A DNA stretch of 64,000 bases from an uncultured Ignavibacteria bacterium (GTDB taxonomy: Bacteria; Zixibacteria; MSB-5A5; UM-FILTER-46-8): NCBI GenBank assembly GCA_964563085.1, contig CAZLVS010000009.1, forward strand, positions 14,400 through 78,399. Direction: 5' to 3'. Made by a program: the position numbers and the translations under genes. Positions 11,868-55,825 of this stretch are shown in pieces. A model generated the notes under the pieces. The model worked only from the letters and a program-made list of their open reading frames with translations, ran no database searches and was not told the origin of the DNA. Within the stretch, counting starts at the first letter, position 1; each line of letters starts with the position of its first letter.

Positions 11868-13538
11868 ATGCCGTACCCAGAGGAACTAAAACAGCTTATT
11901 AAGATAGTGGAAAGCACCCGCGAAGAGAGGGTTGCCCGCAAGAGAAAAAACGAGGAAGTCCCTTTCCTGAGTCTCGATGAACGGAAAGAAATGCTTGCTA
12001 ACCATCCCGATGTGAAAGAAGAGGGAAGACGGGAACTGAAGGTCGGTCCCAGCAAAGGATATCGTATCGCCCACGAGGTGTGCGACCTGCTGGAGGCGAA
12101 AAGCCGCGTGGATCCCAATGCGGTTGACCTTTCCAATCCCGATATCGAAACCGATGTGCTGATAATCGGCGGGGGCGGAGCGGGAACTGCGGCGGCGATT
12201 ATGGCTCAGGAACAAGGCGCCAAGGTCACAATCGCCACTAAGTTGCGTCACGGCGACGCCAACACCATGATGGCCGAGGGCGGAATTCAGTCCGCTACCA
12301 AGGGGCATAAGGATTCGCCGTATTACCATTACCTCGACGTGATGGGCGGCGGTCATTTCGTTAACGATCCCGACCTGGTGGAAACACTGGTAACCAAAGC
12401 TCCCAACGCCATCAAGTGGCTGGAAAGCCTGGGGTGCAATTTCTCCAAGTTCCCGGATGGGACTCTTAAGACTATCCATGGAGGCGGGACTTCCCGTAAG
12501 CGTATGCATTATGCCGCCGATATCACCGGCGCGGAAATGATGCGCACCGTCCGCGATGAAGCTCGCAACCGCGTTAAAGATATCCAGGTTGTGGAATTCT
12601 CCCCGGCGGTGGAGCTTCTGCTCAATGAACATGGCAATTCCGCCGGCGCAGTATTGTACAATCTTGACACCGAGGAATACGTGGTAGCCAAGGCGAAATC
12701 TGTAGTGATGGCTACCGGCGGCTGCGGTCGTTTGCATATCCAGGGGTTTATGACCACCAACCATTACGGCGCAACCGCTGACGGTATCGTACTCGGTTAT
12801 CGCGCCGGAGTGAAGATCTGTTTCCTGCATACCGTGCAGTATCACCCCACCGGTATCGTATTCCCGGAGCAGGCGGAAGGAATTTTGATTACCGAGAAAT
12901 TCCGCGGTTCGGGCGCTAACTTAGTCAACGTTGATGGCCAGCAGTTCGTTAACGAACGCGAACCGCGCGATGTGGAAGCCGCCGCTATCATCAAGGAATG
13001 CGTCGGGCAGGGCAAGGGAGTTCCCACTCCCACCGGTAAGCTGGGTATCTGGCTTGATTCGCCGATGATCGATATGCTGGAAGGCGAAGGAACCGTGGAA
13101 CGTGAATTCCCCGGAAAATTCATCCTGTTCAAGCGCTACGGAATCGATATCTCCAAGGAACCGATGTTGATCTATCCCACGCTGCATTATCAGAACGGCG
13201 GACTGGAATTCAAGAACACCGGCGAGACAGCGGTACCGGGTCTGTTCGCAGCCGGAGAGGTCGGCGGAGGTATCCACGGCGAAAATCGTTTGATGGGTAA
13301 TTCGCTTCTGGATATTATGGTTTTCGGAAGGATCGCGGGCGAAACCGCCGCCAGGTACGCTAAGGAAAAAGCGAACGGCAGCAAGCTCTCGCTGGAGCAT
13401 GTTGAGAAATACAACAAAGAGATAGAAGAAGCGGGAGTCGGCGACGGACGCGTAGCCCCGATGATACTCCCCAACTACACCGATGAACGTATCCGCCAAA
13501 GACAACTCACCGCCCATTACGTGGGAACCATAAGGTAG
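11868..13538 (+). CDS. FrdA/SdhA/TfrA-family flavoprotein
   Basis: GGGGAG FAD motif, MAEGG, HGGGTS, QYHPTG, ITE..RG, EPRD, HYQNGG, HGENRLMGNSL. Confidence 0.88.
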   Translation: MPYPEELKQLIKIVESTREERVARKRKNEEVPFLSLDERKEMLANHPDVKEEGRRELKVGPSKGYRIAHEVCDLLEAKSRVDPNAVDLSNPDIETDVLIIGGGGAGTAAAIMAQEQGAKVTIATKLRHGDANTMMAEGGIQSATKGHKDSPYYHYLDVMGGGHFVNDPDLVETLVTKAPNAIKWLESLGCNFSKFPDGTLKTIHGGGTSRKRMHYAADITGAEMMRTVRDEARNRVKDIQVVEFSPAVELLLNEHGNSAGAVLYNLDTEEYVVAKAKSVVMATGGCGRLHIQGFMTTNHYGATADGIVLGYRAGVKICFLHTVQYHPTGIVFPEQAEGILITEKFRGSGANLVNVDGQQFVNEREPRDVEAAAIIKECVGQGKGVPTPTGKLGIWLDSPMIDMLEGEGTVEREFPGKFILFKRYGIDISKEPMLIYPTLHYQNGGLEFKNTGETAVPGLFAAGEVGGGIHGENRLMGNSLLDIMVFGRIAGETAARYAKEKANGSKLSLEHVEKYNKEIEEAGVGDGRVAPMILPNYTDERIRQRQLTAHYVGTIR

Positions 13539-38288: not shown

Positions 38289-40946
38289 ATGAGAAGAAAG
38301 CAATTGTTTCGGTTAATACGGAAATGTTTTAAATATATTAATTTTCTTGTCCTTTGCGGTGTTTTTATTCTTCTTTTCTATGGCACTGTAATCTGCGGTG
38401 AGATTGAGAATCCCGATTTTGGCGATAATCCGGCTATTGATTTAATTCCGATTATCTACCCAAAACCGAGCGGAATGGGACTGGCGCTTTCCGGCGGAGG
38501 GGCTCAGGGATTTGCCCAGATCGGCGTATTGAAAGCGCTTGAAGAGAATAATATCCCGATCTCACACATAGCAGGAACCAGTATCGGAGCTGTTATAGGC
38601 GGATTGTACGCTTCGGGTTATTCCGCTGTTGACCTGCAGAGGATGGCTGAAGCGACTGACTGGCAGAGTCTTTTTTCCAATAATCCAAACAGGTTAAAGC
38701 TCTTTCTTACTCAAAGGCAGGCTCGGGAGAAACATCTACTGGAAATCAGATTCGACGGCTTAACGCCCTATATCCCTCAGGCATTTACCAGCGGACAGCG
38801 GATGACGAGCTTTTTATATGATATTACCGTGAATTCCCGCTACGGAGCCGGGGCGGATTTCGACCAATTGCGAATCCCTTTCCGGGCTGTTGCAACCGAT
38901 TTAGTTACCGGAGAGACGATTATACTGTCCTCCGGAGATCTCGCCGAAGCTATGCGGGCGTCGGTCTCCGTACCGTTGGCATTCAGTCCGGTCGAGTATG
39001 ATCATACGCTATTAGTTGATGGGGGATTAACGGAGCCTATACCGGTTAACGTAGTGAGGGGGATGGGGGCTGCTGCGGTGATTGCGGTGAATACCGTTTC
39101 GCAGCTTAACCCTAAGGATAAACTGAATTCGCCATTCGATATTGCCAATCAGGCGACAAGTATTATGGTTAAGGAGAAAACCGCGGAGCTGCTGGAGCAA
39201 GCTGACCTTGTAATAAACCCTGACCTTTCCAACTTCGCTAATACTGAGTTTACCGATGTCCCTGCAATAATTGAAGCCGGGGAAAAGGCTGCTTATGCCA
39301 AACTGCCCGAGATCAGGAATCTTCTTGGGGATAATCAAGCTCAAGACAGCGAGCCCCTTTTTGTCAGCAATATCAATATCTCGTTGGGCGATAATGCAAA
39401 CTTACCGGAACATATCAGCGCCATAACCGAAAAGTATCAACACCGCGATATAACGTTTGGCTCACTAACTGCATTAAAGGAAGAAATCTGGGGCTGTGGC
39501 GATTATATATCGGTGGATGCTCGAATTGAAACATTAGCGGGTAACGCGGCAGTTGAATTGGTTTTAATTCTCTCTCCAATAATTAGCGAGGTGCGAATTT
39601 TAGGGAATACCGTATTCTCGTCGGATATTTTAAGGAAGTACCTTCAAGTTGATGAAGACAATAAGCTGGATGTATCCGAGTTGCGGCGCGGATTGCTGAA
39701 TATTGAGAATCTTTATCGTAATTCACATTACCCGTTGATTAAGTTCAATCGAATCGGAGTCAACACGAAATCGGGTATTCTTACCATCGAAATTGATGAG
39801 GGATTGATATCGGATTTAGAAATAATAGGCTCCGGTATTACCCGATCCTGGTTGATTCACAGGGATTTCCCTGATGTGGTCGGCAGACCGTATAATTCCA
39901 AGGATATCGATGCAGGAGTGGAAAAGCTATATAGCACCGGTTTATTTGACTACGTAAGCACCAATATCGCCAGCCATTTCAATGGGTACTATACTCTAAG
40001 ATTGAAAATCCGTGAAAAGCATCCGGTTGCGGCCAGATTCGGCGCAAGATATGATAATGAGTATAACTTGCAGGGACTGATGGAGTTAGGTAATTACAAT
40101 ATCGCCGGGACCGGTAAGGAGGTTATCGTGCGCGGTATAATAGGCGATAGAGAACAAAAACTCCGTTCCGAGTTCCGCGCCGACAGATTCTTTAAAACCA
40201 TGATCACGTTCTCTATTTTCGCTGAGTTCGGCAGTAAAGAAATGGATCTGTATTTCGATCATCGACCGAGAGAGCAATACACAAAGGATAACATTGCGGC
40301 GGGTTTTAGGATAGGTCAGCAGATTTCGCGACTGGGTACAGCTTCTCTGGAAGTCCGCGCGGAGGATATCACCGAGGAGTTCCCCGACAATAATGAATTG
40401 AATAGCGATATACGCAGTATAATCCTTCGCTCTATTGTTGATACTAAGAACAAGAATGTACTGCCTGAAACCGGCAAATACCATCATTCTTACCTGGAAA
40501 TTGCCAATGACGTCCTGGGCGGTCAAGAGGTTTACAGCAAATTTTATATCTCTTTGGAATCTTATTATCCGTTTCCCTGGGGATTTATTTTTCATCCTCA
40601 CGGCGCCCTTGGAATCTCAATAAACGGTCTACCTCATCCGGAGAAATTCCGTTTGGGGGAACCCGATGGATTTGCCGGATATTACAGCAATGAAGTTCTT
40701 GGCGATAACATGTTTTTCTACTTTTTAAAAATCCGTAAATCTCTGTATCGCAATTACTATTTGTATTTCAGATATGATACCGGCGATGTTTTCGATAATC
40801 GCAAGGAAGTGAAACTAACCCAGCTTCGGCATGGATTTATGATCGGATTGGTGGTCAACACCTTCCTCGGTCCCCTTGATATCAACTACGGCATTCACGA
40901 AGAGGATATCGATAGGTTTTCTCTATCCTGGGGATATGAGTTTTAG
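38289..40946 (+). CDS. Patatin-like phospholipase-POTRA-Omp85 barrel fusion (PlpD/type Vd-like)
   Basis: GGGAQG, GTSIG, DGG; POTRA-like segments; barrel ending LSWGYEF. Confidence 0.88.
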   Translation: MRRKQLFRLIRKCFKYINFLVLCGVFILLFYGTVICGEIENPDFGDNPAIDLIPIIYPKPSGMGLALSGGGAQGFAQIGVLKALEENNIPISHIAGTSIGAVIGGLYASGYSAVDLQRMAEATDWQSLFSNNPNRLKLFLTQRQAREKHLLEIRFDGLTPYIPQAFTSGQRMTSFLYDITVNSRYGAGADFDQLRIPFRAVATDLVTGETIILSSGDLAEAMRASVSVPLAFSPVEYDHTLLVDGGLTEPIPVNVVRGMGAAAVIAVNTVSQLNPKDKLNSPFDIANQATSIMVKEKTAELLEQADLVINPDLSNFANTEFTDVPAIIEAGEKAAYAKLPEIRNLLGDNQAQDSEPLFVSNINISLGDNANLPEHISAITEKYQHRDITFGSLTALKEEIWGCGDYISVDARIETLAGNAAVELVLILSPIISEVRILGNTVFSSDILRKYLQVDEDNKLDVSELRRGLLNIENLYRNSHYPLIKFNRIGVNTKSGILTIEIDEGLISDLEIIGSGITRSWLIHRDFPDVVGRPYNSKDIDAGVEKLYSTGLFDYVSTNIASHFNGYYTLRLKIREKHPVAARFGARYDNEYNLQGLMELGNYNIAGTGKEVIVRGIIGDREQKLRSEFRADRFFKTMITFSIFAEFGSKEMDLYFDHRPREQYTKDNIAAGFRIGQQISRLGTASLEVRAEDITEEFPDNNELNSDIRSIILRSIVDTKNKNVLPETGKYHHSYLEIANDVLGGQEVYSKFYISLESYYPFPWGFIFHPHGALGISINGLPHPEKFRLGEPDGFAGYYSNEVLGDNMFFYFLKIRKSLYRNYYLYFRYDTGDVFDNRKEVKLTQLRHGFMIGLVVNTFLGPLDINYGIHEEDIDRFSLSWGYEF

Positions 40947-40977: not shown

Positions 40978-43900
40978 TCACTTAACCAGCGCCATCTTGC
41001 GAGTAATTTTCTTATCACCTGCCGCTAATCTATAGAAATACAATCCGGATGAATATTCGGATGCATTCCAACTCACGGATCTGAAACCCGCCTTCTGAGG
41101 CGAATCAACTAATGTTGCTACCTTCTGTCCCATCAGATTGTAAACGGAGAGATTTACTTCGCAATTTTCCGGAAGCGTATATTCGATTGTTGTTATCGGA
41201 TTAAAGGGATTGGGGTAGTTCTGATTCAGGGAATAAGTCGAAGGTAATTCAGCCGATTCCTCATCGGCATCGAGGTAATAGTCATAATAAAGGTGTCTGC
41301 GATCCATATCATGGCCATACATCCTCCAATCCAGCCCATAGACCGCCGAATTCGCTTTGTAATCGTACACAGCAAGATTATTGGCAGCCTGCCTGAATCC
41401 AACCACGATTTCCAGGTCGCCGTCGCCGTCGATATCATCTACCGCGGGGGAGGAGGAAGTTATGGTGCCGTATGTAGGCAATGGGAAGTTCCTGACAGCG
41501 GAGCCATCGATGTTAAACGCATATATCGAACCATCGATACTGGCAACGATAATCTCCTTGGATCCATCGCCGTCTATATCCACGATAACCGGCGAAGCGC
41601 TCAATGATGATCCTACTGACACAGGCCAGTTTTCGATGTCTTCACCCTCGGAAGTTATACCGTACAATAATGCGCCGTTGGTCCCTACGAATATCTCAGG
41701 GACACCGTCAGCATCGATATCTGCCAATGCGGCATCAGCTTTGATTGCGGCGCCTAAATCCCTGGGAAAACCGTTCATAATGGAACCGTCGTGTTTGATT
41801 GCATAAAATTGATTGGATTGTGTGCCTACCATTATCTCGTCGCGATTGTCTTCGTCCAAATCGCCCATCGCCGGAGCTGCCCAGATAATATCGCCCAGAG
41901 CTGCGGGGAAACCATCAACCGCGGAACCATCGCGATTCCAGGCATGAAGATTACTATCCAGCCCCCCCGCCGCAATCTCCAGATCGTCATCGGCATCGAG
42001 ATTTCCCGCCGAAGCGCCTCCGTAAATCTTGCTTCCGGTCTCCACGGGAAAGCCGGATACTGCTGTTCCATCGACATTATAAGCGTAAACTCTGCCATCG
42101 CCGAACGCGGCAAAAACAACTTCGCTGAAATCATCGTCATCAAGGTCAACCAGCATCGGCGTGCTGTAATACTGCTGACCTTCCTGTTTCGGGAATCCCG
42201 GCATATCATTACCGTCCGTATCCTTGACATACAGGTGCCCGTTTTTAGTGCAGAATGTAGCTTGGTAACCCGCATTTCCATCCATCTGACCGATCGCCAT
42301 GCCGCCGACTATATCACCGGCGACTTCTACGGGATACCCGGGAACCGAACTTCCATCATGGTTAAGGGCGAAAATACTATCGCCGGCAGTGCCGAATACT
42401 ATTTCATTAGCATAATCACCGTCAACATCGAATAATCCGATACATCCCTCGATATTTCCGCTGGCGGTAACCGGGAAATTCTTTTGATTCAATGAAACAT
42501 CGATATAAAACGTATCGGTTACGCTATAACCGCCGTCAGCGGTAATGGTTATTTCAACCGGAATGGCATGAACCAAAGCGTCCTGTGATATATTCATGGT
42601 GAATGGATCTGAGGAATTCTCCCCCTCGCTGTCGGAGCCTATATCGCCGTAATCCGCTTCGCCGTCAATAATGGTCAAATCGGCGTCATCGGTGGAAACC
42701 GAACCATGCACGTTGGCAGCTTCCGCCCAGAAATTCCTGATAGTCACTATAACTTCCAGAGCCTCCCCCGGATTGGGAATTCCGTCCCCGTCGTCATTGG
42801 TGATAGTCTGCTCGGATGATATCGCCCTGAGGTTCGGATAAAGCTGATAAGCCAAGCCGCCGAAAGCATCCACCCTTCCGGCGCCGAGCAGTCCCACCCA
42901 ATTCGGGTTGCGCGAATAGAGAGCCACGCTATCGGCTGATTGGGTGATTATATCCCAAATATCTTGAGTGGTTCTGTTGATATCCTGAGCCTTGACCAAA
43001 GCAGCCGCTCCGGCGCAGACCGGCGATGCCATGGAAGTGCCCTGCAGGAAACTGTAGGAATCATGCGCCCAGGTGCTGTATATGTTTACGCCGGGCGAGC
43101 TTATATCTATCCAGTCACCGTAATTGGTGAAACCTGCTCGCACATCGCCATTGGCAGTTGCGGCGACACATAAGGACTTCTCATAACCGGCAGGATAATG
43201 TTCGACATCGGTATTATCATTACCGGCGGCAGCGACTACCAAACATCCATCTTCAAAGGCGCTTTCGATAATCTGTCTTTCCGCATTACTGTATATGTAG
43301 TTTCCATAACTGCAATCCACGAAATGAGCCCCTACATCCACGCAATATATAATGCAAACATTAGTAGCTATCAGTGAACCGCCGGTGCCGGCAGCTTTGG
43401 CAGCGATTATCTTGGCTGAAAATGCAGGACCCGCCCCTCCAATTTCATTGTCGGTAGCCTCGGAGGCGCATCCGGCGACATGCGTACCATGATCCGGATA
43501 TTCCTCAGCCGGATCGGCATCCCGGGCGCCCATGTCGATACCGCATACGTCATCCTCATAGCCGTTGTCATCATCATCCAACCAGTTTAAGTCTCCGCCT
43601 TCATTTTCCGGGAAATTGTCGAATATACCGTTGTTGTTCAGATCCTCGGGCGGATTGATCCACATATTCGGCTCCAGGTCGGGATGGTCATAATATACTC
43701 CGGTATCCACGATCCCGATAATAACCGTGTCCGTTTCCTCGCCCCTGACGATATCCCAGGCTTCATAAGCGCGTATATTCCCTAAGAACCATTGATTGCC
43801 GATTGATGGATCGTTCGGTTCATAGCAGGGCTGGGGAACATAATGCACTTCGGCGTATTGCAGATAGGGTTCGCCTGAAATCACGGCTGCCGCCTCCCAT

Positions 43901-44241
43901 ACATCCGAGCGGCCATCGGTGGCCAAGGAGTACATTCTATCAACAGATTCCTTCATGTGACTCGGCTTGAGTTTGCCTTTATAATATTTTTCGACCTTGA
44001 CAACTCCATACTGTTCACACAGCCGGTCTAATGAACCGTAACCGGCGCTGAATCCCGGCGTATCGAATTCCCCCGTATTCAACGGCTTTGAATCAGGCAT
44101 TATTCCTATTACGATTTTATCGGAGAGGTATTGAATACCATCCGAGGTGGTCAAAATTGTGTAGTCAGCGGCGATACCGTTATTCGCAGCCGTCATAACG
44201 GTCAAAAACGCAGCAACCATAAAAACTCTATAATTTCCCAT
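40978..44241 (-). CDS. Secreted S8 subtilisin-like peptidase with FG-GAP/VCBS repeats and T9SS-type CTD
   Basis: Catalytic VDTG, HGTHVAG, AAAGN, GTSMAS; repeated DxDGD...EI motifs; PNPFNPITTI...KMALVK. Confidence 0.92.
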   Translation of the reverse strand: MGNYRVFMVAAFLTVMTAANNGIAADYTILTTSDGIQYLSDKIVIGIMPDSKPLNTGEFDTPGFSAGYGSLDRLCEQYGVVKVEKYYKGKLKPSHMKESVDRMYSLATDGRSDVWEAAAVISGEPYLQYAEVHYVPQPCYEPNDPSIGNQWFLGNIRAYEAWDIVRGEETDTVIIGIVDTGVYYDHPDLEPNMWINPPEDLNNNGIFDNFPENEGGDLNWLDDDDNGYEDDVCGIDMGARDADPAEEYPDHGTHVAGCASEATDNEIGGAGPAFSAKIIAAKAAGTGGSLIATNVCIIYCVDVGAHFVDCSYGNYIYSNAERQIIESAFEDGCLVVAAAGNDNTDVEHYPAGYEKSLCVAATANGDVRAGFTNYGDWIDISSPGVNIYSTWAHDSYSFLQGTSMASPVCAGAAALVKAQDINRTTQDIWDIITQSADSVALYSRNPNWVGLLGAGRVDAFGGLAYQLYPNLRAISSEQTITNDDGDGIPNPGEALEVIVTIRNFWAEAANVHGSVSTDDADLTIIDGEADYGDIGSDSEGENSSDPFTMNISQDALVHAIPVEITITADGGYSVTDTFYIDVSLNQKNFPVTASGNIEGCIGLFDVDGDYANEIVFGTAGDSIFALNHDGSSVPGYPVEVAGDIVGGMAIGQMDGNAGYQATFCTKNGHLYVKDTDGNDMPGFPKQEGQQYYSTPMLVDLDDDDFSEVVFAAFGDGRVYAYNVDGTAVSGFPVETGSKIYGGASAGNLDADDDLEIAAGGLDSNLHAWNRDGSAVDGFPAALGDIIWAAPAMGDLDEDNRDEIMVGTQSNQFYAIKHDGSIMNGFPRDLGAAIKADAALADIDADGVPEIFVGTNGALLYGITSEGEDIENWPVSVGSSLSASPVIVDIDGDGSKEIIVASIDGSIYAFNIDGSAVRNFPLPTYGTITSSSPAVDDIDGDGDLEIVVGFRQAANNLAVYDYKANSAVYGLDWRMYGHDMDRRHLYYDYYLDADEESAELPSTYSLNQNYPNPFNPITTIEYTLPENCEVNLSVYNLMGQKVATLVDSPQKAGFRSVSWNASEYSSGLYFYRLAAGDKKITRKMALVK

Positions 44242-44459
44242 TACTTTCTCCTAACTAAAGCTGCAGATAGGCGAGAACTGCAAACCTGTTCAAAATTTTA
44301 CTAATTTAGTGAAATATAATAAAATAACCGGTTTAGTCAAGGGAGTAGTTCCCTCTTCTACTGGTTAGTTTGCAGTATTACAGCGGTATGCAAAAAGTTA
44401 TTTTTTCTCAGGTAAATTGACCTTATACTTAAAGGATAGATAATTATTGAGGAGTACTT

Positions 44460-45809
44460 ATGTCAGAAGGTGAAATAGTCAAAATTCTCTCGTCTAAGTT
44501 ATTAAACGGCGAAATCCCGCCGTGGAAAGTTGAATCCCTTATATCAGAGGAACATGGAATAAATGCCCCCGAAAACTTTATCCTTGCTGCTAAAGCGCGA
44601 AGAGATTTCCTCGAGAAGAGGACCGGTTTAAAGTTCGAATATCTCTCATTACCGGACAAACCGTATCTGATAAATTATGCCTGTCGAAAATGCAATATAG
44701 ATTATCAACTCGCCGCTTACGATGAGAAGACTATCTGCTCGCTATGCGGCGATATGCCGGCGGTAAAGAAACCGGAGAAAATGTTTCCGTTTACAGCTAA
44801 CTATATCGGCGGTATCGATGATTATTTCTCCTATTGCGGGATGTTCGATGTGCATGGTGATATTGAGAAGCAATTCACCGGTATTCTTCAGTACGGCACC
44901 GGATTGGGTCCGATCGGCGTAACCCGCGGCGCATTTTTTATCAATCGTTCCGGCGGCGCGGAAGTGACCGTTTCCGAGTCCGCCCGAGCCTGCCGTAATC
45001 TCGGCTACATTTTCGCTGATGAAAGTGCCAGGAAGAATGCGATGCGGATCGTGGAGGAATTTCTACCTTATGTTCGTAAGGAGATGAACGGAGTTTTGCA
45101 GAAATGGGGAGGAGAGGTTTCGTTTGTCGAATTACTTCCGGTGGAGGATATGGGCAAACTCTATTTGTTCATCGATTTTACCGCTGAGTTCAAACTCTTC
45201 CGAGGGCATGGCGCTATCAGCAAAGCGACCGGTTTTGCCAAAAAGCTCATCGATGATAAATTCCACTCTGAAGGTTTTGAGTACCAGCTCAGCGGAATTA
45301 CACAGGGCTACGATGGAGATCTCAAACCTTCACTTAGGAATAAACGCGGTCGGTACGGTTTAGCCAGAGTTTCCGTGCCCAAAAACGAAATTGAGAAACT
45401 CACCGGTAAACCGGCTCAGCATTTGATTGATTTCGTGCAGATGGATGCCAAAGGCGCCGAAAAACTGGGGTGGTTTCATCATACCGGAATGGGCGGCGAA
45501 ATAATCGCCGGTTTTTATAAAGCAACCAAAGTTAATCCTCATGCCCCGCTTGTCTCGTCAACCCAGGAGATTTTCTGCCTCCATGAAGGGAAAAACATCG
45601 TTTATGGAGTGGAGCTTCCCAACGTAGAAGTCGGAACGATATCCTCTGCAGAAGGAGCAATCCCGCCGCTGGGCAGAGAAATGATGAGGTTTATGGGGAT
45701 AACAAATGCGCGTGAATACGCCGCCTGTTTATCTGCAATCGTACTTGCGGGGGAATTCAATCTTTCGGTGGAAATAGTACGGGAAAATCTCTATAAACCT
45801 TCCCCTTAA
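44460..45809 (+). CDS. Divergent class I HMG-CoA reductase homologue lacking catalytic motifs, with Zn-ribbon insertion
   Basis: Collinear with archaeal HMGR from the N-terminus (KLLNGEI, ARRDFLEKRTG) to AVLAGE-like end (IVLAGEFNL); canonical motifs substituted; CRKC-x14-CSLC insert. Confidence 0.75.
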   Translation: MSEGEIVKILSSKLLNGEIPPWKVESLISEEHGINAPENFILAAKARRDFLEKRTGLKFEYLSLPDKPYLINYACRKCNIDYQLAAYDEKTICSLCGDMPAVKKPEKMFPFTANYIGGIDDYFSYCGMFDVHGDIEKQFTGILQYGTGLGPIGVTRGAFFINRSGGAEVTVSESARACRNLGYIFADESARKNAMRIVEEFLPYVRKEMNGVLQKWGGEVSFVELLPVEDMGKLYLFIDFTAEFKLFRGHGAISKATGFAKKLIDDKFHSEGFEYQLSGITQGYDGDLKPSLRNKRGRYGLARVSVPKNEIEKLTGKPAQHLIDFVQMDAKGAEKLGWFHHTGMGGEIIAGFYKATKVNPHAPLVSSTQEIFCLHEGKNIVYGVELPNVEVGTISSAEGAIPPLGREMMRFMGITNAREYAACLSAIVLAGEFNLSVEIVRENLYKPSP

Positions 45810-45975
45810 CAAACCGTCTTTTAAGACCGATAGAGGATTACTGCGTCGCTTTCCCGACATGAGCGGTGGAATGACTTTCAATTCCCGTGGATACTGAAGG
45901 GAGTCCTTGCGTTTAAGGCCGGGAGGATCACTTTTCTAATAACGGCGGATTTTACCCCGTCCCGCATAAATCAGA

Positions 45976-46001
45976 ACGGGCTGCCTTTTCAGACAGCCCG
46001 T
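45976..46001. terminator. Hairpin between convergent genes
   Basis: ACGGGCTG...CAGCCCGT. Confidence 0.45.
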
Positions 46002-46076
46002 CCAATTACCTGCTATTCGGCTGCAGATTATCAGTCTGTATGAATTATCCGAGTTAGACAGCTCCTATTATAGATC

Positions 46077-46796
46077 CTACGCTCCGTACTGAAGCCGCAT
46101 TGCCAGATAGTCGGGAAGTCCCGCATCATGGATTTTCTTAACAGCAGCTGCTATATCATATTCTAACCTTACATTCTCGAGCGCTCGTTCTTCAGGATAA
46201 AAAATGGAAAATGCCAATTGCGGATTTCCATCCCGAGGTTGTCCGATACTCCCCGCATTTACGATGCTCTTCGAATTATCGGGTAGGATTATCTTACCAT
46301 CACTCAGGCTTTTTTCCCCTTCGGAATAAACTCCCTGAACATGCGAATGCCCCACAAACGCTATACTTTTCTTCATTAAAGGGAAAATCCGTATTGCATC
46401 AATCCGGTTAAATATATAATCCCAACTCTCGGGAACCACGGGGGTTGCATGGCAATATACTGCGTCAAGAGTTTCAATTGTATATGGGAGTTGTCCAAGC
46501 CAGTCTTTTTGCTCTTGAGCAAGGCTGCTGCGGGAGTATTGCACGCCCGCCACAGCGTACACATTCATAAACGCTTCCTCTTGCGAATTTATCACAGAGT
46601 AATCATGATTTCCCAGACAGATCTCATCGGTTGAAGAACGTATCAGGTTCAAGCAATCTGATGGATCAGCGCCATATCCAACTATATCCCCCAGGCAAAC
46701 CAATTTCTTTTCCCCATCAGTTTGATCGTAATATCCGAGTGCGGTCTCCAGAGCTTCCAGATTCGAATGTATGTCTGAAATTACGAAAATCTTCAT
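46077..46796 (-). CDS. Calcineurin-like metallophosphoesterase (YfcE/MJ0912-like)
   Basis: SDIHSN, GDIVGYG, GNHD, HAT, GHSH, NAGSIGQPRDG. Confidence 0.9.
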   Translation of the reverse strand: MKIFVISDIHSNLEALETALGYYDQTDGEKKLVCLGDIVGYGADPSDCLNLIRSSTDEICLGNHDYSVINSQEEAFMNVYAVAGVQYSRSSLAQEQKDWLGQLPYTIETLDAVYCHATPVVPESWDYIFNRIDAIRIFPLMKKSIAFVGHSHVQGVYSEGEKSLSDGKIILPDNSKSIVNAGSIGQPRDGNPQLAFSIFYPEERALENVRLEYDIAAAVKKIHDAGLPDYLAMRLQYGA

Positions 46797-50156: not shown

Positions 50157-50654
50157 CTACTCTATCCCCAATCGTTTGCGCGTATATGGAATCAGTCCGC
50201 CGGCTTCGATTATACCCTGTGCCGATTCCGGCAGCGGCGGTATGGTAAACTCGCCTTTGGAAGTTGTTATAATGCCGTTAGCAAGATCAATCTTGATCTC
50301 GTCGCCGCTTTCCACAGCGTCTACCGCTTCTGCCGACGTAATTGGCGGTAATCCGAAATTCAGGCAGTTACGGAAGTAAAGCCGAGAAAATGATTTTGCG
50401 ATGATAGCTCCTACTCCGGCGTATTTCAGGCACGATGCCGCCTGCTCCCGGGATGAACCGCAGCCGAAATTCTTACCGCCGACCACCACATCGCCTTTGC
50501 TAACTTTACTTGAGAACTCAGGATCGAGATCCTCCATTGCATGTTTGGCGATCTCTTCGGGGTCGCTGACTGTGTAAGTATATTTTCCCGGGAAGATCAC
50601 ATCGGTGTTAATATCATCGCCGTATTTGAAAACTTTACCTTCTATTTTTGACAT
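50157..50654 (-). CDS. leuD: 3-isopropylmalate dehydratase/homoaconitase small subunit (copy 2)
   Basis: AAGGAG RBS; GDDINTDVIFPGKY, NFGCGSSREQA, AKSFSRLYFRN. Confidence 0.9.
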   Translation of the reverse strand: MSKIEGKVFKYGDDINTDVIFPGKYTYTVSDPEEIAKHAMEDLDPEFSSKVSKGDVVVGGKNFGCGSSREQAASCLKYAGVGAIIAKSFSRLYFRNCLNFGLPPITSAEAVDAVESGDEIKIDLANGIITTSKGEFTIPPLPESAQGIIEAGGLIPYTRKRLGIE

Positions 50655-50778
50655 TTTGGCTCCTTGGTCCGTTACATTTCGAAAGTTATCTTCACCAGTC
50701 ATTGCCCCGACTTCATTGGAAAATCGAAGCAATCCATATTCACATCGTAGATACTATGGTATAAAAGAGTAAAAAAGA

Positions 50779-51546: not shown

Positions 51547-52800
51547 TTATAAATACTCCCTCGGATCGGTGATCTCGCCTTTGAGAGCCGATGCCGCAAC
51601 CGATGCCGGTGATGCCAGATATATCTCAGCTTCCCGGCTGCCCATTCTGCCTTTGAAATTCCGATTAGCGGTTGAAATGACCACCTCATCCGGCGCGGGC
51701 ACACCCTGATGAGCGCCCAGACATGGTCCGCATCCGGAGTTGGTTATTATTCCCCCGGCTTCCATTATAGTCTGAGCGTACCCTGCTTTCATAGCGTCCA
51801 TATAGACTTTCCTGGATGCGGGTATGCAGATCATGCGGCAATCGGGATGTATTTTCCGTCCTTTCAAGATGGACGCAACCACCTGCCAATCCGACAGCCG
51901 CGAACCGTTACAAGTTCCCAAAAACGCCTGCTGAACTTTGGCGCCTACAACTTCACTTATCGGTTTGACGTTGTCAACCGTATGGGGACATGCAACTTGG
52001 GGTTCAAGCTCGGTTAGATCTATCTCGATATCTTTAGCATACTCGGCGTCGCTGTCAGGAAATACCGGCTGATAAGTCTGATTGCCCCGCAATGCCAGAT
52101 ACGAGAACGTTTTCTCATCAGGTTTCATATAACCGTTTTTAGCGCCCATCTCCACCGCAAGATTGGTAAACACCACACGATAATCCATAGAGAGTGAATC
52201 AAGATAAGGTCCTGAAAACTCTATCGAACGATAGATCCCCCCGTCAGCGCCAATCCTGCCTACTACGTGAAGCGCAACGTCTTTGGCAAATATTCCCTTG
52301 GGCGGCATTCCCAAAAGCAGCGCCCGCATCGATTCCGGGACACGGAACCATATCTTGCCCGTAGCCATTATCACAGCCATCTCCGAACGGCCGATTCCGG
52401 TGGCAAAGGCTCCGAAAGCCCCGTGATGGGTGGTATGCGAATCGCTGCCAACCACAACCATACCGGGCAGAACCATTCCCTCCTCAACCATCACCTGGTG
52501 GCAGATTCCGGCATTAACATCATAAAACTTTGTTATTCCCTGGTTTTTAGCAAATATCCTCACCGTCTTATGATTTTGCGCAAACTTCTCGTTGGCGGCA
52601 GGGGTGCAGTGATCCAGTATTATGACATGCAGATTCGGATCATAAACCTTGTCGACACCAATATCGTAAAAAGTTTTCGATATCGCGGCGGTGTTATCGT
52701 GCGACATGGCGAGGTCAGGCGTAATTTCTACGATCTCACCCGGCGCCACATCCTTGCCGACCCTCTTTGATAATATTTTCTCAGCAAAAGTAAGTCCCAT
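51547..52800 (-). CDS. leuC: 3-isopropylmalate dehydratase/homoaconitase large subunit (copy 2)
   Basis: SHDN, LDH, GICHQ, GSDSHT, LGTCNGSR, SGCGPC, TANRNFKGRMG; ends DPREYL without a tail. Confidence 0.92.
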   Translation of the reverse strand: MGLTFAEKILSKRVGKDVAPGEIVEITPDLAMSHDNTAAISKTFYDIGVDKVYDPNLHVIILDHCTPAANEKFAQNHKTVRIFAKNQGITKFYDVNAGICHQVMVEEGMVLPGMVVVGSDSHTTHHGAFGAFATGIGRSEMAVIMATGKIWFRVPESMRALLLGMPPKGIFAKDVALHVVGRIGADGGIYRSIEFSGPYLDSLSMDYRVVFTNLAVEMGAKNGYMKPDEKTFSYLALRGNQTYQPVFPDSDAEYAKDIEIDLTELEPQVACPHTVDNVKPISEVVGAKVQQAFLGTCNGSRLSDWQVVASILKGRKIHPDCRMICIPASRKVYMDAMKAGYAQTIMEAGGIITNSGCGPCLGAHQGVPAPDEVVISTANRNFKGRMGSREAEIYLASPASVAASALKGEITDPREYL

Positions 52801-53747: not shown

Positions 53748-55316
53748 CTATAACCGGGGGGCTTTTATGCAGCCGCCGAGCGCGGTCGCGGCTGCGACCT
53801 GATGATTGGCAAGGTAAACCCGATGAGGATAATCATCGGGGAATATGGTCAAAGCCGATGGATCGGTCACCATCACCCTCCCCATGTTACTATCTGTTTG
53901 AGGAAACACGAAATCTGTAAAATCGGGCGCCGGTGGTAAAAAGGAGCAGCCGGCGACCACCAATTTCCTGAATGTCCCTTCCTCTTCCAGTCGAAGCAGT
54001 ACATCCTTGGTTGCGGGACGGATCAGGACACGGATCCTGGGGGGGAGGTTTTGCTTTTTCAGGATATTGTCAACTTCCAAAATGTCATCATACATCCCTC
54101 CCGAATAATACCCGATTATTATAGTATCCACCCTCTCGTCTTCGTTGTCATTGAGCGATTCGATCGCTATTTTACCATCACGCTGAATTCCCAGCAAAGG
54201 ATCAATCTCCAAAACCGATTGGCTTATTGAATATGAATACACACAACCGACATCGGATTTCAAGGTATTAAATTTCATTACCGCCTTTTTTCTAAGCATT
54301 TTCGCTGTTTTTTTATCGCACTCCATGCAGACCGAAACGCAATCGAATAACCTGGCGAGGTAACATAGCACGAACCGTTTATCAAGAGGCAGGCTTTCAA
54401 CTGTATCGCCGCTTATTTCGATACTATGCGAACTGAAATCTTTCATTCTGGTTTTACCTTTGAGGAACAAAACGATATCGAGCGGCTGGATTCCTCTTAA
54501 CGGCGTATCCATCAGCACTATTCTGGATACATTGAACCTGGGAATTTTCACCTGGTCATTGCTGACGGAATCAATCAAACCGGTACCGTCCACGCGCAAT
54601 CCCAATGCCCCTACAGCCCCCGCGCTTATAACCGCCGGATCGCTGCCGAGTATCAGCTCGCCCGGTAGTATATAACCATTGTGTACCGCATCCAGTATCT
54701 GTCCGCCCTGCGAAGGATTGGATATATTCCACTTTTCACATAGCGAAGCCAGCTTTTCCTTATACTCTTCATTTATGGAATTGCCCGGATACAGCGCATA
54801 TATTTCGTTTGTATTTTTCTGTTTCGTGACCGATTTCGATTTGGAAAGCTCCAGAAAGCCGGAATCGAGATTGCTTATGAATATGCGATCCGGTTTTAAC
54901 GCCAACCGGTTTTCGCTTGAGTCATCGGCTGCCTTGTTCTGTAGAATCTTATCGATAATATTGCGACGCGTATCTTTCCCCATGAACTCCTTGATGCCGG
55001 GAAGCGGAAGCTGCATCTGTTCCAGTTTCAACCTCTCCGGTTTCTCGGCTATCCCATACTTCTTACGCCAATAACGGAATGCATTGCCGCTAATCCCCAG
55101 CGCCTCGCCGCCTAATTTATCATTACCGAAACGTTCCCACACCTCGGTGATTTGTGATTGGCTGTATTTCGGTTCGGAATAAGCGGGAATGCCCTTTTTA
55201 CGCCTCCAATAAGCGATAAGGTATGGTTCCACCCCTCCTAATACTTCCCCTATTTTCTTATCAGTCTTATATCGTCTCTGAAGTTCTAACAGCTCTTTTT
55301 TGGATGGCATCTTCAT
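53748..55316 (-). CDS. Tandem-HTH protein fused to a catalytically dead LeuC/aconitase large-subunit fold
   Basis: Two ~40-aa HTH-like repeats ending YWRRKKGI and YWRKKYGI; C-terminal part collinear with LeuC but DSHT>DPAV, GTC>GYY, GCGPC>APDF. Confidence 0.8.
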   Translation of the reverse strand: MKMPSKKELLELQRRYKTDKKIGEVLGGVEPYLIAYWRRKKGIPAYSEPKYSQSQITEVWERFGNDKLGGEALGISGNAFRYWRKKYGIAEKPERLKLEQMQLPLPGIKEFMGKDTRRNIIDKILQNKAADDSSENRLALKPDRIFISNLDSGFLELSKSKSVTKQKNTNEIYALYPGNSINEEYKEKLASLCEKWNISNPSQGGQILDAVHNGYILPGELILGSDPAVISAGAVGALGLRVDGTGLIDSVSNDQVKIPRFNVSRIVLMDTPLRGIQPLDIVLFLKGKTRMKDFSSHSIEISGDTVESLPLDKRFVLCYLARLFDCVSVCMECDKKTAKMLRKKAVMKFNTLKSDVGCVYSYSISQSVLEIDPLLGIQRDGKIAIESLNDNEDERVDTIIIGYYSGGMYDDILEVDNILKKQNLPPRIRVLIRPATKDVLLRLEEEGTFRKLVVAGCSFLPPAPDFTDFVFPQTDSNMGRVMVTDPSALTIFPDDYPHRVYLANHQVAAATALGGCIKAPRL

Positions 55317-55825
55317 CTGGAATTTGCCCTGTTTTTTTCCTTCTTGTAACGGTCAAACTCCGGCTTTAATCTTTCGTATATTATATTCAGGCCAACGGAT
55401 TGAAGCTTGGTTTTTCCCACAACCGGCAAAAAATTCGTATCTCCGTTGAAACGGGGTACTATATGATAATGAAGGTGATACTCTATACCGGCGCCCGCCA
55501 CCGCACCGATATTCATCCCGATATTTAATCCGTGAGGTTTAAACTTCTTTTTCAGCAGCTTTACCGACAGCACCACCAACTCTATCATCTCGGCATGTTC
55601 ATCCTCGGTCAGGCTTTCTATATGTTTCAAATGCCGATAAGGCACCACCAAAAGATGACCGGGATTATAAGGATAGAGATTAATTATAACAAATGAATAC
55701 TCTCCATTGTAGAGAATCAAATTCTGCTGCTGCTTTTTCTGCCTCCCCTTTTTACAAAATACGCAGTATTCTTCCTTCTTGCCAAGCACGAAATCACTGC
55801 GCCATTCTGCCCATAGGTCTTCCAT
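55313..55825 (-). CDS. HIT-family hydrolase (Ap4A phosphorylase/Rv2613c-like)
   Basis: LWAEWR, CVFC, NLYPYNPGHLLVVP, HLHYHIVPR. Confidence 0.9.
   Translation of the reverse strand: MEDLWAEWRSDFVLGKKEEYCVFCKKGRQKKQQQNLILYNGEYSFVIINLYPYNPGHLLVVPYRHLKHIESLTEDEHAEMIELVVLSVKLLKKKFKPHGLNIGMNIGAVAGAGIEYHLHYHIVPRFNGDTNFLPVVGKTKLQSVGLNIIYERLKPEFDRYKKEKNRANSR

Follow-up and report, generated by a model that had tools for sequence, protein, structure and literature searches.

A widespread conserved protein with a predicted HMG-CoA-reductase fold that has lost the residues of reductase chemistry

The locus and its gene

The stretch of DNA analysed here (the window) comprises 64,000 nucleotides of an uncultured bacterium of the Zixibacteria lineage, and the gene of interest is an open reading frame on its forward strand at 44460..45809 (+), encoding 449 amino acids from an ATG start. 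A sigma70-like promoter, TTGACC-16 nt-GATAAT, lies at 44417..44444 (+) within the 218-bp divergent intergenic region; it matches the consensus at 10 of 12 positions and rests on that match only. A Shine-Dalgarno sequence, GAGGAG, is present at 44449..44454 (+), 5 nt before the ATG. Downstream, a hairpin with a 13-bp stem at 45974..46003, between the convergent genes, is a possible terminator, although this is a pattern match only and its T-tail is weak.

Homology to HMG-CoA reductase and predicted fold

Membership of the HMG-CoA reductase (HMGR) superfamily at the level of the fold is far beyond chance. Pfam PF00368 matched residues 154-444 with 43.6 bits (E=2.6e-11, gathering score 27). While a single-sequence search of the PDB gave only marginal hits (E about 0.01), a family profile aligned to PDB 6HR7, the class I enzyme of Methanothermococcus thermolithotrophicus, with E=3.8e-17 over residues 103-436, and an hhalign comparison with canonical class I HMGRs gave E=1.8e-18. 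An AF2 model (pLDDT 90.4) was compared with known structures using Foldseek, and the top 50 hits were all HMGRs, with TM up to 0.75; the match to 6HR7 had E=7.5e-21 and TM 0.64/0.73, and that to human HMGR had a core rmsd of 3.3 A over ~350 columns. The lack of a significant HMGR-fold match had been named in the earlier note as grounds for refuting its reading, and the match is in fact highly significant.

The protein is collinear with archaeal-type class I HMGR (6HR7/6HR8; human 1DQ8-1DQA) from residue ~3 to ~445, with the same three-part architecture of an N-domain helix bundle, an L-domain and an S-domain. The shared scaffold motifs are the MTR Arg, D-x-K-P of the cis-loop, GRG, (L)P-x-x-E-x-G and LAGE. 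The N-domain (residues 1-60, 44460..44639 (+)) contains three helices in the model (DSSP: 3-15, 21-32 and 38-55) and includes the invariant PPW22KVE, which aligns with the K(I/L)HEVE motif of canonical archaeal HMGRs; W22 is found in 72 of 72 family members.

Replacement of the catalytic and cofactor motifs

Every motif substitution listed in the earlier note is present, and HMMER, MAFFT and hhalign all align the substitutions in the same way; the residue roles given below are taken from PMC11948995 and PMC3875450. ENxIG is replaced by ANYIGG (residues 113-118, 44796..44813 (+)), in which Y115, G117 and G118 are invariant. TTEG is replaced by YGTG (145-148, 44892..44903 (+)), placing T147 at the position of the catalytic Glu. 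This position is never Glu but is variable (T35/P32/S3/A2 among 72 members), and T147 is thus not a functional replacement. DAMGMN, an NADPH-site motif, is replaced by LFRGHG (246-251; FRGHG, 247-251, lies at 45198..45212 (+)), in which R248, G249 and H250 are 72/72. The former cis-loop GNxCxDKK is replaced by QGYDGDLK (282-289) within QGYDGDLKPSLRNKRGR (residues 282-298, 45303..45353 (+)); here D287 and K289 are kept, the catalytic Lys is L288, and there is a 3-residue deletion before RGR, with D285, D287, L288, K289, N294, R296 and R298 all 72/72.

Further along, NAHxAN is replaced by the invariant GMGGEI (343-348, 45486..45503 (+)), with M344 aligning with human His752 and E347 with Asn755 (MAFFT and hhalign). 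The earlier note had proposed HHTG among the new residues, but HHTG is not conserved; the conserved motif is GMGGEI. GQD is replaced by KVNP (357-360, 45528..45539 (+)), with N359 at the position of the catalytic Asp and both N359 and P360 72/72. LPxIEVGTVGGGT, the second NADPH-site motif, is replaced, with a 2-residue insertion, by ELPNVEVGTISSAEG (385-399, 45612..45656 (+)), in which GTVGGGT has become GTISSAEG (392-399); E385, N388, E390, G392, E398 and G399 are invariant. In general form, DAMGMN has become xFRGHG and GTVGGGT has become G-x-x-S-x-x-E-G. Finally, LAGEFNL...LY445 and a short tail occupy 45744..45806 (+), and the C-terminal flap helix carrying the catalytic His is absent. The window protein ends 4 residues after Y445, and across the family this tail is 1-11 aa long with no conserved His.

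The catalytic tetrad Glu559/Lys691/Asp767/His866 (human numbering; PMC11948995) is therefore absent, and neither NAD(P)H-site motif is retained. In contrast, R179 (44994..44996 (+)), the Arg of the canonical MTR(A/D)P motif, is invariant in this family, in the archaeal sister family described below and in canonical HMGRs. The protein also falls far short of the curated equivalog TIGR00533 for the enzyme itself (EC 1.1.1.34/88), scoring 47.7 bits against a cut-off of 441.8. Continued reduction of HMG-CoA or another acyl-CoA, with different catalytic residues or a different reductant, is consequently very unlikely in our view, even though the fold and S-domain are intact, JGI annotates some members as HMG-CoA reductase, and FcrA, the HMGR-derived fatty acyl-CoA reductase, shows that class I HMGR relatives can change substrate (PMC11948995). 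The new residues at both NADPH motifs are charged, and in the archaea that carry the sister family a fully canonical HMGR is encoded next door. Normal HMG-CoA reduction, which the earlier note had named as a finding that would count against it, was not assayed. No isoprenoid-pathway gene was seen among the 21 window ORFs scanned against Pfam or, by eye, among the N-termini of the other long ORFs; the rest of this genome was not examined for the mevalonate pathway, nor were whole-genome checks made for CP070750.1, CP070652.1, CP070724.1 and the Scalindua genomes, whether for canonical HMGR, the mevalonate or MEP pathway, PHA genes or 3-hydroxybutyrate dehydrogenase.

The inserted metal-binding knuckle module

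Between the N-domain and the ENxIG equivalent lies an inserted module of ~35 residues (within residues ~66-110, 44655..44789 (+)), which is a gap in both canonical HMGRs and the sister family. Its putative ligands are C75 and C78 (44682..44693) and C93 and C96 (44736..44747), giving C75-x2-C78-x14-C93-x2-C96, and the model shows beta hairpins with pLDDT 91-95. C75, C93 and C96 are 72/72, whereas position 78 is D54/C7/E7/H3/N1, so that 71 of 72 members carry D, C, E or H there. The CRKC-x14-CSLC Zn ribbon described in the earlier note is present, but Cys at position 78 occurs only in Zixibacteria and a few Aminicenantes, the family norm being C-x2-D...C-x2-C, and the element is better described as a conserved Cys3-(Asp/Cys/Glu/His) knuckle pair; the identity of the metal was not examined. 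The module is probably a structural metal site, and possibly a docking element. Neither DUF35 nor any other Pfam family matched it; residues 60-112 of the window protein gave only noise hits (E>0.1) to the DUF35 models.

Conservation and selection

A total of 257 database homologues were found, at least 120 of which are about 450 aa long. In 72 full-length members from at least nine clades, 77 positions are ⩾97% conserved, and R248, G249, H250, D285, D287, L288, K289, E347, N359 and E398 are 100% invariant. The dN/dS ratio is 0.098 against the closest relative and 0.03-0.18 over 107 pairs, indicating strong purifying selection. Neutral decay among homologues had likewise been named in advance as grounds for rejecting the idea of a repurposed protein, and it was not observed. 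A decaying pseudogene or spurious ORF, which the loss of the canonical motifs might suggest, is thus refuted, given also the intact 449-codon frame with a promoter and a ribosome-binding site.

A DPANN-archaeal sister family

We also identified a previously unnamed sister family in DPANN archaea (sequences P0156, P0172 from Aenigmarchaeota, P0150, P0180, P0181, P0162, P0167, P0176, L097 and L099 in our set). It shares with the present family Y-x-G-G, G-H, DGDL[KR]P, the 3-residue deletion plus RGR, GM..E, E-G and the Asn of the LAGEFN motif (N434), all of which are present in the window protein, and it also has no catalytic tetrad and no flap His. An hhalign comparison gave E=4.2e-41 between the two families, against 2e-18 for this family and 4e-26 for the sister family versus canonical HMGRs, in support of a single origin of the derived state. 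A rooted tree of canonical HMGRs, FcrA, the sister family and this family, which would date the loss of the tetrad, was not built, and no phylogenetic profiling across GTDB was made. The sister family differs in having no metal knuckle insertion, in keeping the Lys equivalent to human K735, in lacking R248 and in its longer C-terminal tail (..LGSEKYR).

In all six sister-family loci examined, a SucD-like gene lies directly upstream and a canonical HMGR directly downstream, in the order SucC-SucD-[HMGR-like]-[canonical HMGR], with gaps or overlaps from -14 to +92 nt. Our family is never found in such an operon. One of these loci sits inside a full mevalonate supercluster, and the Aenigmarchaeota cluster already has an HMG-CoA synthase. 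A metagenome scan for more sister-family loci returned only three, one of them a duplicate, so that the family is rare in that collection. Fused domains were also inspected but gave no clue to function: P0179 is a canonical HMGR fused to a kinase-like domain, and P0155 looks chimeric.

Gene neighbourhoods in bacteria

All 14 anammox and both Pirellulaceae loci read thiolase, 3-hydroxyacyl-CoA dehydrogenase (3HCDH) and then this gene on one strand, with gaps of 12-248 nt. In Desulfobacterota, MaoC hydratase lies 88-335 nt upstream in 6 loci and a dienelactone-hydrolase gene 3 nt downstream in 11, and CoA_trans, SDR, AMP-ligase and thiolase genes lie nearby. In total, 28 of 77 loci have such neighbours within 6 kb. 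In most Zixibacteria, KSB1, TA06 and Aminicenantes loci, including the window, there are no informative neighbours, and no neighbourhood conserved across phyla was found in the FCB-group and Aminicenantes loci. The recurring Omp85-family neighbour (the window and two other loci) and the GDPD neighbour (two loci) are probably due to chance. A GHMP kinase near the gene in two Aminicenantes loci is not a confident mevalonate kinase, since it scores 84.7 bits against a cut-off of 163 and its best hit is HddA.

Proposed function

The observation made in the earlier note, that of an HMGR-like protein with altered catalytic motifs and an inserted Cys module, is confirmed, apart from the corrections given above. 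Its interpretation, that the protein is repurposed rather than decayed, is supported. The note had left undecided whether this is new enzyme chemistry or a sensing pseudo-enzyme; our evidence, from operon partners in three other lineages and from conserved new polar residues in the former active site, leans towards an enzyme in acyl-CoA metabolism, but does not prove catalysis.

What the analysis shows directly is that the HMGR fold is present from end to end (as judged by homology and the model), that the four catalytic residues and both NADPH motifs are replaced or deleted, that the replacements, other than that of the Glu, are invariant under strong purifying selection across bacteria and archaea, and that the residues aligning with the 3-hydroxy-acid contacts of HMGR are kept, namely R179 (human R590), D287 (D690) and K289 (K692). 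It is by inference only that we consider the protein still to bind a 3-hydroxyacyl-CoA-type thioester. The Lys that salt-bridges the distal carboxylate of HMG is Asp (D329) here but is retained in the archaeal sister family, and so the bacterial proteins probably take a monocarboxylic 3-hydroxyacyl group, such as 3-hydroxybutyryl, while the archaeal ones probably take an HMG-like dicarboxylic group. However, R156, the equivalent of the CoA-phosphate Arg568, is Val in half the family.

Our tentative reading is therefore of a neofunctionalised member of the class I HMGR superfamily that no longer transfers hydride and acts on 3-hydroxyacyl-CoA thioesters. As for the reaction itself, which is not established, our leading guess, possible but no more than that, is acyl transfer at the thioester carbon, that is, a CoA-transferase. 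In this hypothesis the invariant carboxylate E347, at the old oxyanion-hole position (human Asn755) next to the thioester carbonyl, would act as nucleophile or base, and the former nicotinamide pocket, now lined by R248, H250 and E398, would hold the second carboxylate substrate, so that a carboxylate replaces hydride as the group attacking C1. Model coordinates were not inspected and no pocket, docking or ligand co-folding analysis was made, and the proximity of E347, H250 and R248 to the thioester was accordingly not checked. In DPANN archaea, the partner SucCD would regenerate succinyl-CoA as donor and the product CoA ester would feed the adjacent HMGR, whereas in anammox bacteria and Pirellulaceae the protein would supply the one function missing from the operon, the activation of a 3-hydroxy acid, ahead of the 3HCDH and thiolase. 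In the window the gene is monocistronic, with its own sigma70-like promoter.

Several points speak against CoA transfer. The reaction type is inferred from residue positions in a homology mapping and from gene neighbourhoods, without any assay. Several Desulfobacterota loci already encode a family I CoA-transferase or an AMP-ligase, which makes a further CoA-transferase look redundant and fits a hydratase-plus-lyase pair better, and R248 is not conserved in the sister family. With an HMG-CoA synthase already in the Aenigmarchaeota cluster, an HMG-activating step is not obviously needed there. Moreover, no Pfam or NCBIfam hit other than HMGR was obtained and all structural neighbours are HMGRs, so there is no sequence or fold relationship to CoA-transferase families I-III. 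The resemblance to enzymes such as succinyl-CoA:3-ketoacid CoA-transferase, succinate-hydroxymethylglutarate CoA-transferase (EC 2.8.3.13) or the ASCT/SCS cycle is functional only: the proposed chemistry uses an active-site carboxylate at the thioester carbon, and pairing with succinyl-CoA synthetase, thiolase and 3HCDH genes is typical of short-chain CoA-transferase operons.

The main rival, which we consider unlikely but worth weighing, is a C-C lyase or synthase acting on a 3-hydroxyacyl-CoA by retro-aldol or retro-Claisen chemistry, analogous to the citryl-CoA, citramalyl-CoA, malyl-CoA and HMG-CoA lyases, in which the retained 3-OH contacts R179 and D287 would handle the 3-hydroxyl and acetyl-CoA would be released. 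The order SucC-SucD-[HMGR-like] matches the order of modules in ATP-citrate lyase, the SucC-like subunit scores just below the NCBIfam succinyl-CoA-synthetase cut-offs (362.7 versus 375.55), and citryl-CoA and citramalyl-CoA are close structural analogues of HMG-CoA. The SucCD-like and sister proteins would then follow the logic of citryl-CoA synthetase plus citryl-CoA lyase, supplying acetyl-CoA to the mevalonate pathway. In Desulfobacterota, where MaoC lies immediately upstream and a CoA-transferase or ligase downstream, these genes would form a hydratase/lyase side-chain-cleavage route like itaconate degradation (Ict/Ich/Ccl). This resemblance lies in gene logic only, one pattern being a SucCD-like ligase followed by an enzyme acting on a 3-hydroxy-3-substituted dicarboxylyl-CoA and the other a MaoC hydratase plus CoA-transferase beside the gene. 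The known lyases have citrate-synthase or CitE/HpcH folds, not an HMGR fold, none of their metal-binding motifs is recognisable, and no homology to them was detected. In addition, a negatively charged E347 at the thioester-oxygen position is a poor enolate stabiliser, and the Planctomycetota operon (thiolase, NAD-dependent 3HCDH) has no obvious need for a lyase and lacks an activating enzyme.

A non-catalytic pseudoenzyme appears less likely still. It would be an acyl-CoA-binding regulatory or scaffold subunit docking onto HMGR and SucCD in archaea and onto thiolase and dehydrogenase in bacteria through the knuckle module, in loose analogy to the Zn-ribbon protein DUF35, which scaffolds the archaeal thiolase/HMG-CoA synthase complex. 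Loss of the whole tetrad is consistent with this, as are the overlaps of 1-14 nt between sister-family genes and both neighbours, typical of complex subunits, and HMGR is an obligate oligomer. The Planctomycetota dehydrogenase also carries a Zn-ribbon extension and is paired with an archaeal-type thiolase, although its N-terminus shows no DUF35 match. On the other hand, the invariant new residues R248, H250, D285, E347, N359 and E398 are polar or charged and sit in the former active-site loops rather than on surfaces, the gene is solitary in most lineages, and no signalling or DNA-binding domain is fused. Since residues of both monomers build each site in human HMGR, both shared active sites of a heterodimer with HMGR would be crippled.

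A hydrolytic or eliminative enzyme acting on the same substrate class is improbable. It could be a 3-hydroxyacyl-CoA thioesterase, with E347, which sits next to the thioester position, as general base for water, or a 3-hydroxyacyl-CoA dehydratase standing in for crotonase, which would follow thiolase and 3HCDH in just this gene order; esterase or alpha/beta-hydrolase genes are also frequent neighbours. However, a dehydratase would be redundant beside MaoC in Desulfobacterota, neither activity explains the rigid SucCD linkage of the sister family, and a simple thioesterase would hardly need ~77 near-invariant positions.

Relation to known HMGR relatives and implications

HMGR is one of the most studied enzymes in biology, and its superfamily has been regarded as functionally uniform: until 2025 every characterised member reduced HMG-CoA. 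Literature searches found no description of the present family, with FcrA as the only related precedent. FcrA exemplifies neofunctionalisation of class I HMGR in bacteria and archaea that lack the mevalonate pathway, and it has likewise lost the Lys salt bridge to the HMG carboxylate, but it keeps Glu/Lys/Asp/His and the flap helix and is still an NADPH-dependent four-electron reductase (PMC11948995). Our family keeps none of these, and it has no Lad or ACP N-terminal domain. The clade described here has discarded the entire hydride-transfer apparatus, yet it is more tightly conserved than many housekeeping enzymes and is present in at least nine bacterial and archaeal lineages typical of anoxic sediments.

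If the boldest form of our reading were true, which is doubtful at present, this would be the first non-redox enzyme family built on the HMGR fold, and a fourth, structurally unrelated class of CoA-transferase (or an acyl-CoA lyase), with a carboxylate substrate sitting where the nicotinamide of NADPH used to sit and attacking the thioester. In DPANN archaea its sister, together with SucCD, would form an ATP-driven, previously unrecognised entry step welded to HMGR in the mevalonate pathway, while in anammox bacteria, Desulfobacterota, Aminicenantes, Zixibacteria and Thermoplasmatota it would be a widespread route for 3-hydroxy-acid carbon (for example 3-hydroxybutyrate or polyester-derived) in anoxic sediments. 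More generally, the rigid SucCD-[HMGR-like]-HMGR operon would point to an unrecognised step at the top of the DPANN mevalonate pathway, and the thiolase-dehydrogenase-[HMGR-like] operon of marine anammox bacteria to an uncharacterised piece of their acetyl-CoA and C4 metabolism.

A resemblance of FRGHG to the GHAGA phosphohistidine loop of SucD was considered and dropped, as it rests on four residues only and the real SucD next to the sister family has its own loop. Genes of this clade named hydroxymethylglutaryl-CoA reductase would be mis-annotated and can create false mevalonate-pathway calls in metagenome-assembled genomes; of 120 homologues inspected, two carry that name, and the rest are unnamed or 'hypothetical protein'.

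Identification of the gene and its relationship to HMG-CoA reductase

The open reading frame described in the earlier note is indeed present at 44460..45809 on the + strand, with 449 codons and an ATG start. It stands alone between a divergent T9SS-type S8 peptidase gene (40978-44241, -) and a convergent metallophosphoesterase gene (46077-46796, -), and a 13-bp-stem GC-rich hairpin at 45974-46003, between the two convergent genes, may be a shared terminator. The gene has its own sigma70-like promoter, TTGACC-16-GATAAT at 44417-44444, and a GAGGAG ribosome-binding site 5 nt before the ATG. Its closest homologues are from Zixibacteria (66-88% identity), so the window most likely comes from that phylum.

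The lack of a significant match to the HMG-CoA reductase (HMGR) fold had been named beforehand as a ground for rejecting the observation, and this point was examined by several methods. Pfam PF00368 scores 43.6 bits against a gathering score of 27 (E=2.6e-11), and a profile of 30 family members matches the solved archaeal class I enzyme 6HR7 at E=3.8e-17 over residues 103-436. An AlphaFold2 model built on that alignment is confident (mean pLDDT 90.4, pTM 0.89), and all of its top 50 PDB neighbours are HMGRs, with Foldseek E values reaching 7.5e-21, TM scores of 0.64-0.75, and a core that superposes at about 3.3 Å over about 350 columns. The rmsd of the full-length alignments is high (about 15 Å), suggesting that some part of the model, perhaps the N-terminal region with its insertion, is oriented differently. 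The homology is well beyond chance, and the observation made in the earlier note is confirmed. However, the protein scores only 47.7 bits against NCBI's HMGR equivalog model, whose cut-off is 441.8; it belongs to the superfamily but not to the enzyme family.

Substitutions in the active site

HMMER, MAFFT and hhalign all give the same residue mapping. The catalytic residues of HMGR are Glu559, Lys691, Asp767 and His866 in human numbering (PMC11948995). In the present protein the Glu is replaced by T147, the Lys by L288 and the Asp by N359, while the His has no counterpart, because the chain ends four residues after Y445, before the flap helix. The two NADPH-site motifs are also changed, with DAMGMN converted into LFRGHG (246-251) and GTVGGGT into GTISSAEG (392-399), the latter with a two-residue insertion; in addition, ENxIG has become ANYIGG. 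The motif substitutions called by eye in the earlier note are therefore all correct. That the protein is nevertheless a cryptic reductase is considered very unlikely, although reduction of HMG-CoA was not assayed.

Some residues are retained, including the Arg of the MTR motif (R179; human R590 by motif identity), the Asp and the second Lys of the cis-loop (D287 and K289; D690 and K692), the RG of GRG (R296-G297), the E-x-G of the IEVG motif, and LAGE. Asn755, which lies in the published substrate pocket next to the reacting carbonyl (PMC3875450), has been changed to an invariant Glu, E347, and the Lys that salt-bridges the HMG carboxylate (PMC11948995) has become D329.

The inserted, probably metal-binding module

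C75-R-K-C78 and C93-S-L-C96 are encoded at 44682-44693 and 44736-44747, respectively. In the three-way alignment of the window family, the canonical HMGRs and a sister family described below, residues ~66-110 are a clean insertion relative to both of the latter, and in the model they form beta hairpins with pLDDT above 90. Across 72 full-length family members C75, C93 and C96 are invariant, while the fourth ligand is Asp in 54, Cys in 7, Glu in 7, His in 3 and Asn in 1. A metal site is thus very likely, although neither the metal nor the role of the module was identified; but the textbook CxxC...CxxC ribbon, reported in the earlier note for this protein, is a local feature of Zixibacteria and a few Aminicenantes. 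The module matches no Pfam zinc-ribbon or DUF35 model.

Conservation of the family

Since the loss of so many catalytic residues could also reflect decay, and neutral decay among the homologues had been set down in advance as a finding that would speak against a repurposed protein, we have checked the conservation of the family and the selection acting on it. A word-indexed search found 257 homologues, of which the 120 listed are almost all about 450 aa and mostly unnamed or 'hypothetical protein'. An exhaustive search of representative sequences found only about 60 clusters at 50% identity, so the family is compact. A scan of one genome per GTDB species returned 80 loci, from Zixibacteria, KSB1, TA06, Aminicenantes, anammox Scalindua/Brocadiaceae, Pirellulaceae, Desulfobacterota, a Thermoflexales (Chloroflexota) genome and three Thermoplasmatota archaea.

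In the 72 full-length sequences, 77 positions are at least 97% conserved, and these include all the 'new' residues, namely Y115, R248, G249, H250, D285, L288, E347, N359, P360, N388, E398, N434 and Y445. Nei-Gojobori dN/dS is 0.098 against the closest relative (locus L016, 88% identity), and 0.03-0.18 in 107 close pairs. In contrast, the position of the former catalytic Glu is T/P/S/A, so that nothing has taken over its role, and R156 (human R568) is Val in half the family. These data exclude pseudogene status, and the reading proposed in the earlier note, that the protein has been repurposed rather than decayed, is supported.

A sister family and a single loss of reductase chemistry

The exhaustive search also returned distant proteins of 439-504 aa (representatives P0150, P0156, P0162, P0167, P0172 and P0176), one of which is from an Aenigmarchaeota genome, while another sits beside a fibrillarin gene. 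Against canonical HMGR, they share with the window family a set of derived states: Y-x-G-G for ENxIG, G-H for MGMN, DGDL[KR]P for xxDKKP, the same three-residue deletion followed by RGR, GM..E for NAH..N, E-G for GGG, an Asn in the LAGEFN motif, and no flap His. Profile-profile scores agree, since the window family gives E=4.2e-41 against the sister family but 1.8e-18 against canonical HMGRs, and the sister family gives 3.6e-26 against canonical HMGRs. The loss of reductase chemistry therefore happened once, before the two families split, and the metal module was added later, in the window's family. The sister family keeps the carboxylate-binding Lys that the window family has turned into Asp.

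Two further proteins came from the same search. P0168 (403 aa) is another, differently degenerate class I HMGR paralogue, which keeps TTE, GQD and GTIGGGT, but has DAVKTN for DAMGMN, has lost DKK, and ends before the flap His. P0179 (934 aa) is an HMGR with largely canonical motifs, fused to a C-terminal domain of about 430 residues that looks like an aminoglycoside-phosphotransferase-type kinase, as judged by eye and not by a domain scan.

Genomic context of the window family

We have called ORFs in the 80 loci and in the window stretch 34461-55809, clustered them by all-against-all BLASTP, and checked the recurrent clusters against Pfam. In all 14 anammox and both Pirellulaceae loci the gene is third in a same-strand array, in which an archaeal-type thiolase with its catalytic Cys/His/Cys intact (Thiolase_N + Thiolase_C_1) comes first and a 3-hydroxyacyl-CoA dehydrogenase (3HCDH_N + 3HCDH) comes next. 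The gaps are 12-248 nt, and the first two genes overlap in most of these loci. The dehydrogenase carries an N-terminal extension of about 95 residues with C-x2-C-x12-C-x2-C (8709-9020 in the Scalindua locus L040, 8731-9060 in the Pirellulaceae locus L071); its pairing with an archaeal-type thiolase resembles the DUF35 logic, but no DUF35 Pfam match was found.

In Desulfobacterota, a MaoC-type (R)-hydratase gene lies 88-335 nt upstream in six loci and a dienelactone-hydrolase-family gene lies 3 nt downstream in eleven, and family I CoA-transferase, SDR, AMP-forming ligase and archaeal-type thiolase genes follow in various combinations. Overall, 28 of 77 loci have such acyl-CoA neighbours within 6 kb. 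The common denominator of these informative contexts is an enzyme that makes or uses a 3-hydroxyacyl-CoA, and HMG-CoA is itself a 3-hydroxyacyl-CoA.

In the FCB group, most Aminicenantes and Thermoplasmatota, however, the neighbours are unrelated. In one Aminicenantes subgroup (loci L026, L028, L031, L033 and L034) a 577-605-aa lipoprotein with a weak 'putative esterase' match always directly precedes the gene (for example, L031 8195-9943), a Crp-family regulator follows it in L031, L033 and L034, and a GHMP kinase of unclear specificity lies divergent upstream. The window belongs to the uninformative class, so the functional inference is transferred from orthologues that are 40-50% identical; as only 64 kb of the source genome was analysed, the occurrence elsewhere in it of a canonical HMGR, the mevalonate or MEP pathway, or thiolase and dehydrogenase partners was not examined. 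The window also encodes a patatin + POTRA + Omp85 fusion protein (PlpD-like) at 38289-40946 (+), and Omp85-family genes lie directly beside the HMGR-like gene in two unrelated loci (L004 11370-12650 and L012 11329-12384, the latter with a 4-nt overlap), but this is probably coincidence.

Genomic context of the sister family

In contrast to the window family, the context of the sister family is rigid. For seven independent proteins (27-43% identical to one another), a SucD-like gene lies directly upstream in 6/6 loci that have upstream sequence; it is preceded by SucC where visible, and it carries its own GHAGA phosphohistidine loop. A canonical class I HMGR lies directly downstream in 6/6 loci that have downstream sequence. 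The five complete copies have ENxIG, TTEG, AAMGMN (an Ala replaces the usual Asp of DAMGMN), DKKP, GQD, GTxGGGT and a C-terminal His, while the sixth (locus L095) is a partial N-terminus carrying IENPVG and a TSEG variant of TTEG. The gaps or overlaps run from -14 to +92 nt.

In the Aenigmarchaeota locus L093 (1-17467) the four genes sit inside a 17-kb mevalonate supercluster, which holds polyprenyl synthase, HMG-CoA synthase, a decarboxylase, three GHMP kinases, an IDI2-like gene, two NUDIX genes and a HAD phosphatase, but no thiolase gene. The HMGR-like protein is thus not a substitute for HMGR, but works beside one.

Possible function

Taken together, the analysis demonstrates an HMGR fold without any of the hydride-transfer residues, and a strong constraint that is concentrated in the loops that formed the old active site. 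What follows from here on is inference. The protein is inferred to bind a 3-hydroxyacyl-CoA-type ligand still, since R179 and D287 are kept in the canonical, sister and window families alike and the genomic contexts point the same way. The Lys-to-Asp change (D329) fits a substrate without the distal carboxylate, such as 3-hydroxybutyryl rather than HMG, whereas the sister family, which sits next to HMGR, keeps the Lys.

We tentatively favour non-redox catalysis on such thioesters, with somewhat less than even confidence, and as a more doubtful but specific hypothesis we propose that the chemistry is acyl transfer at the thioester carbon. In this view, the new invariant carboxylate E347 sits where Asn755 used to polarise the carbonyl, which is where the nucleophilic Glu or Asp of a CoA-transferase, or the base of a hydrolase, would have to be, and the nicotinamide pocket, now lined by R248, H250 and E398, could hold the second carboxylic-acid substrate. 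These spatial statements rest on homology mapping, since the model coordinates were not inspected, and no assay was performed. The hypothesis would explain the SucCD linkage as regeneration of the succinyl-CoA donor in an ASCT/SCS-type cycle, for which succinate-hydroxymethylglutarate CoA-transferase (EC 2.8.3.13) is a chemical precedent. It would also supply the only function missing from the Planctomycetota operon, that is, activation of a 3-hydroxy acid before dehydrogenase and thiolase.

The main rival, although less likely, is a C-C lyase of the citryl-, citramalyl- or HMG-CoA-lyase type. It fits the MaoC-plus-CoA-transferase contexts of Desulfobacterota well, and also the ATP-citrate-lyase-like gene order in archaea, but fits the Planctomycetota operon and an anionic residue at the enolate oxygen less well. 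A non-catalytic partner or scaffold is given still less weight, and a thioesterase or dehydratase is more improbable again.

Comparison with known proteins

The nearest published case of HMGR neofunctionalisation is FcrA, which changes the substrate (fatty acyl-CoA) but keeps the tetrad, the flap helix and NADPH dependence (PMC11948995). Of the defining features of the HMGR enzyme that were examined, the present family has only the fold, and it showed no similarity to known CoA-transferases, lyases or DUF35 in the domain, family-model and structure searches. Full-text literature searches found no description of it, and public records call it 'hypothetical protein' or, wrongly, HMG-CoA reductase or an RNA-polymerase Zn-ribbon subunit. 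We regard it as a new functional clade within a known fold, the function of which is unproven.

Other genes in the window

Two separate aconitase-type large/small subunit pairs (LeuCD- or homoaconitase-like) lie within the 64 kb, at 7556-9025 / 6848-7348 (-) and at 51547-52800 / 50157-50732 (-). In addition, a 522-aa protein encoded at 53748-55316 (-) has only a partial aconitase-family match (PF00330, 69 bits, residues 182-344) and an unmatched N-terminal stretch of ~180 residues, and its gene overlaps a HIT-family hydrolase gene (55313-55825, -) by 4 nt. A four-gene redox cluster at 9655-13538 (+), which is heterodisulfide- or succinate-dehydrogenase-like, comprises a 4Fe-4S dicluster protein, a CCG-domain protein, a Fer2/Fer4 protein and an FAD_binding_2 flavoprotein.
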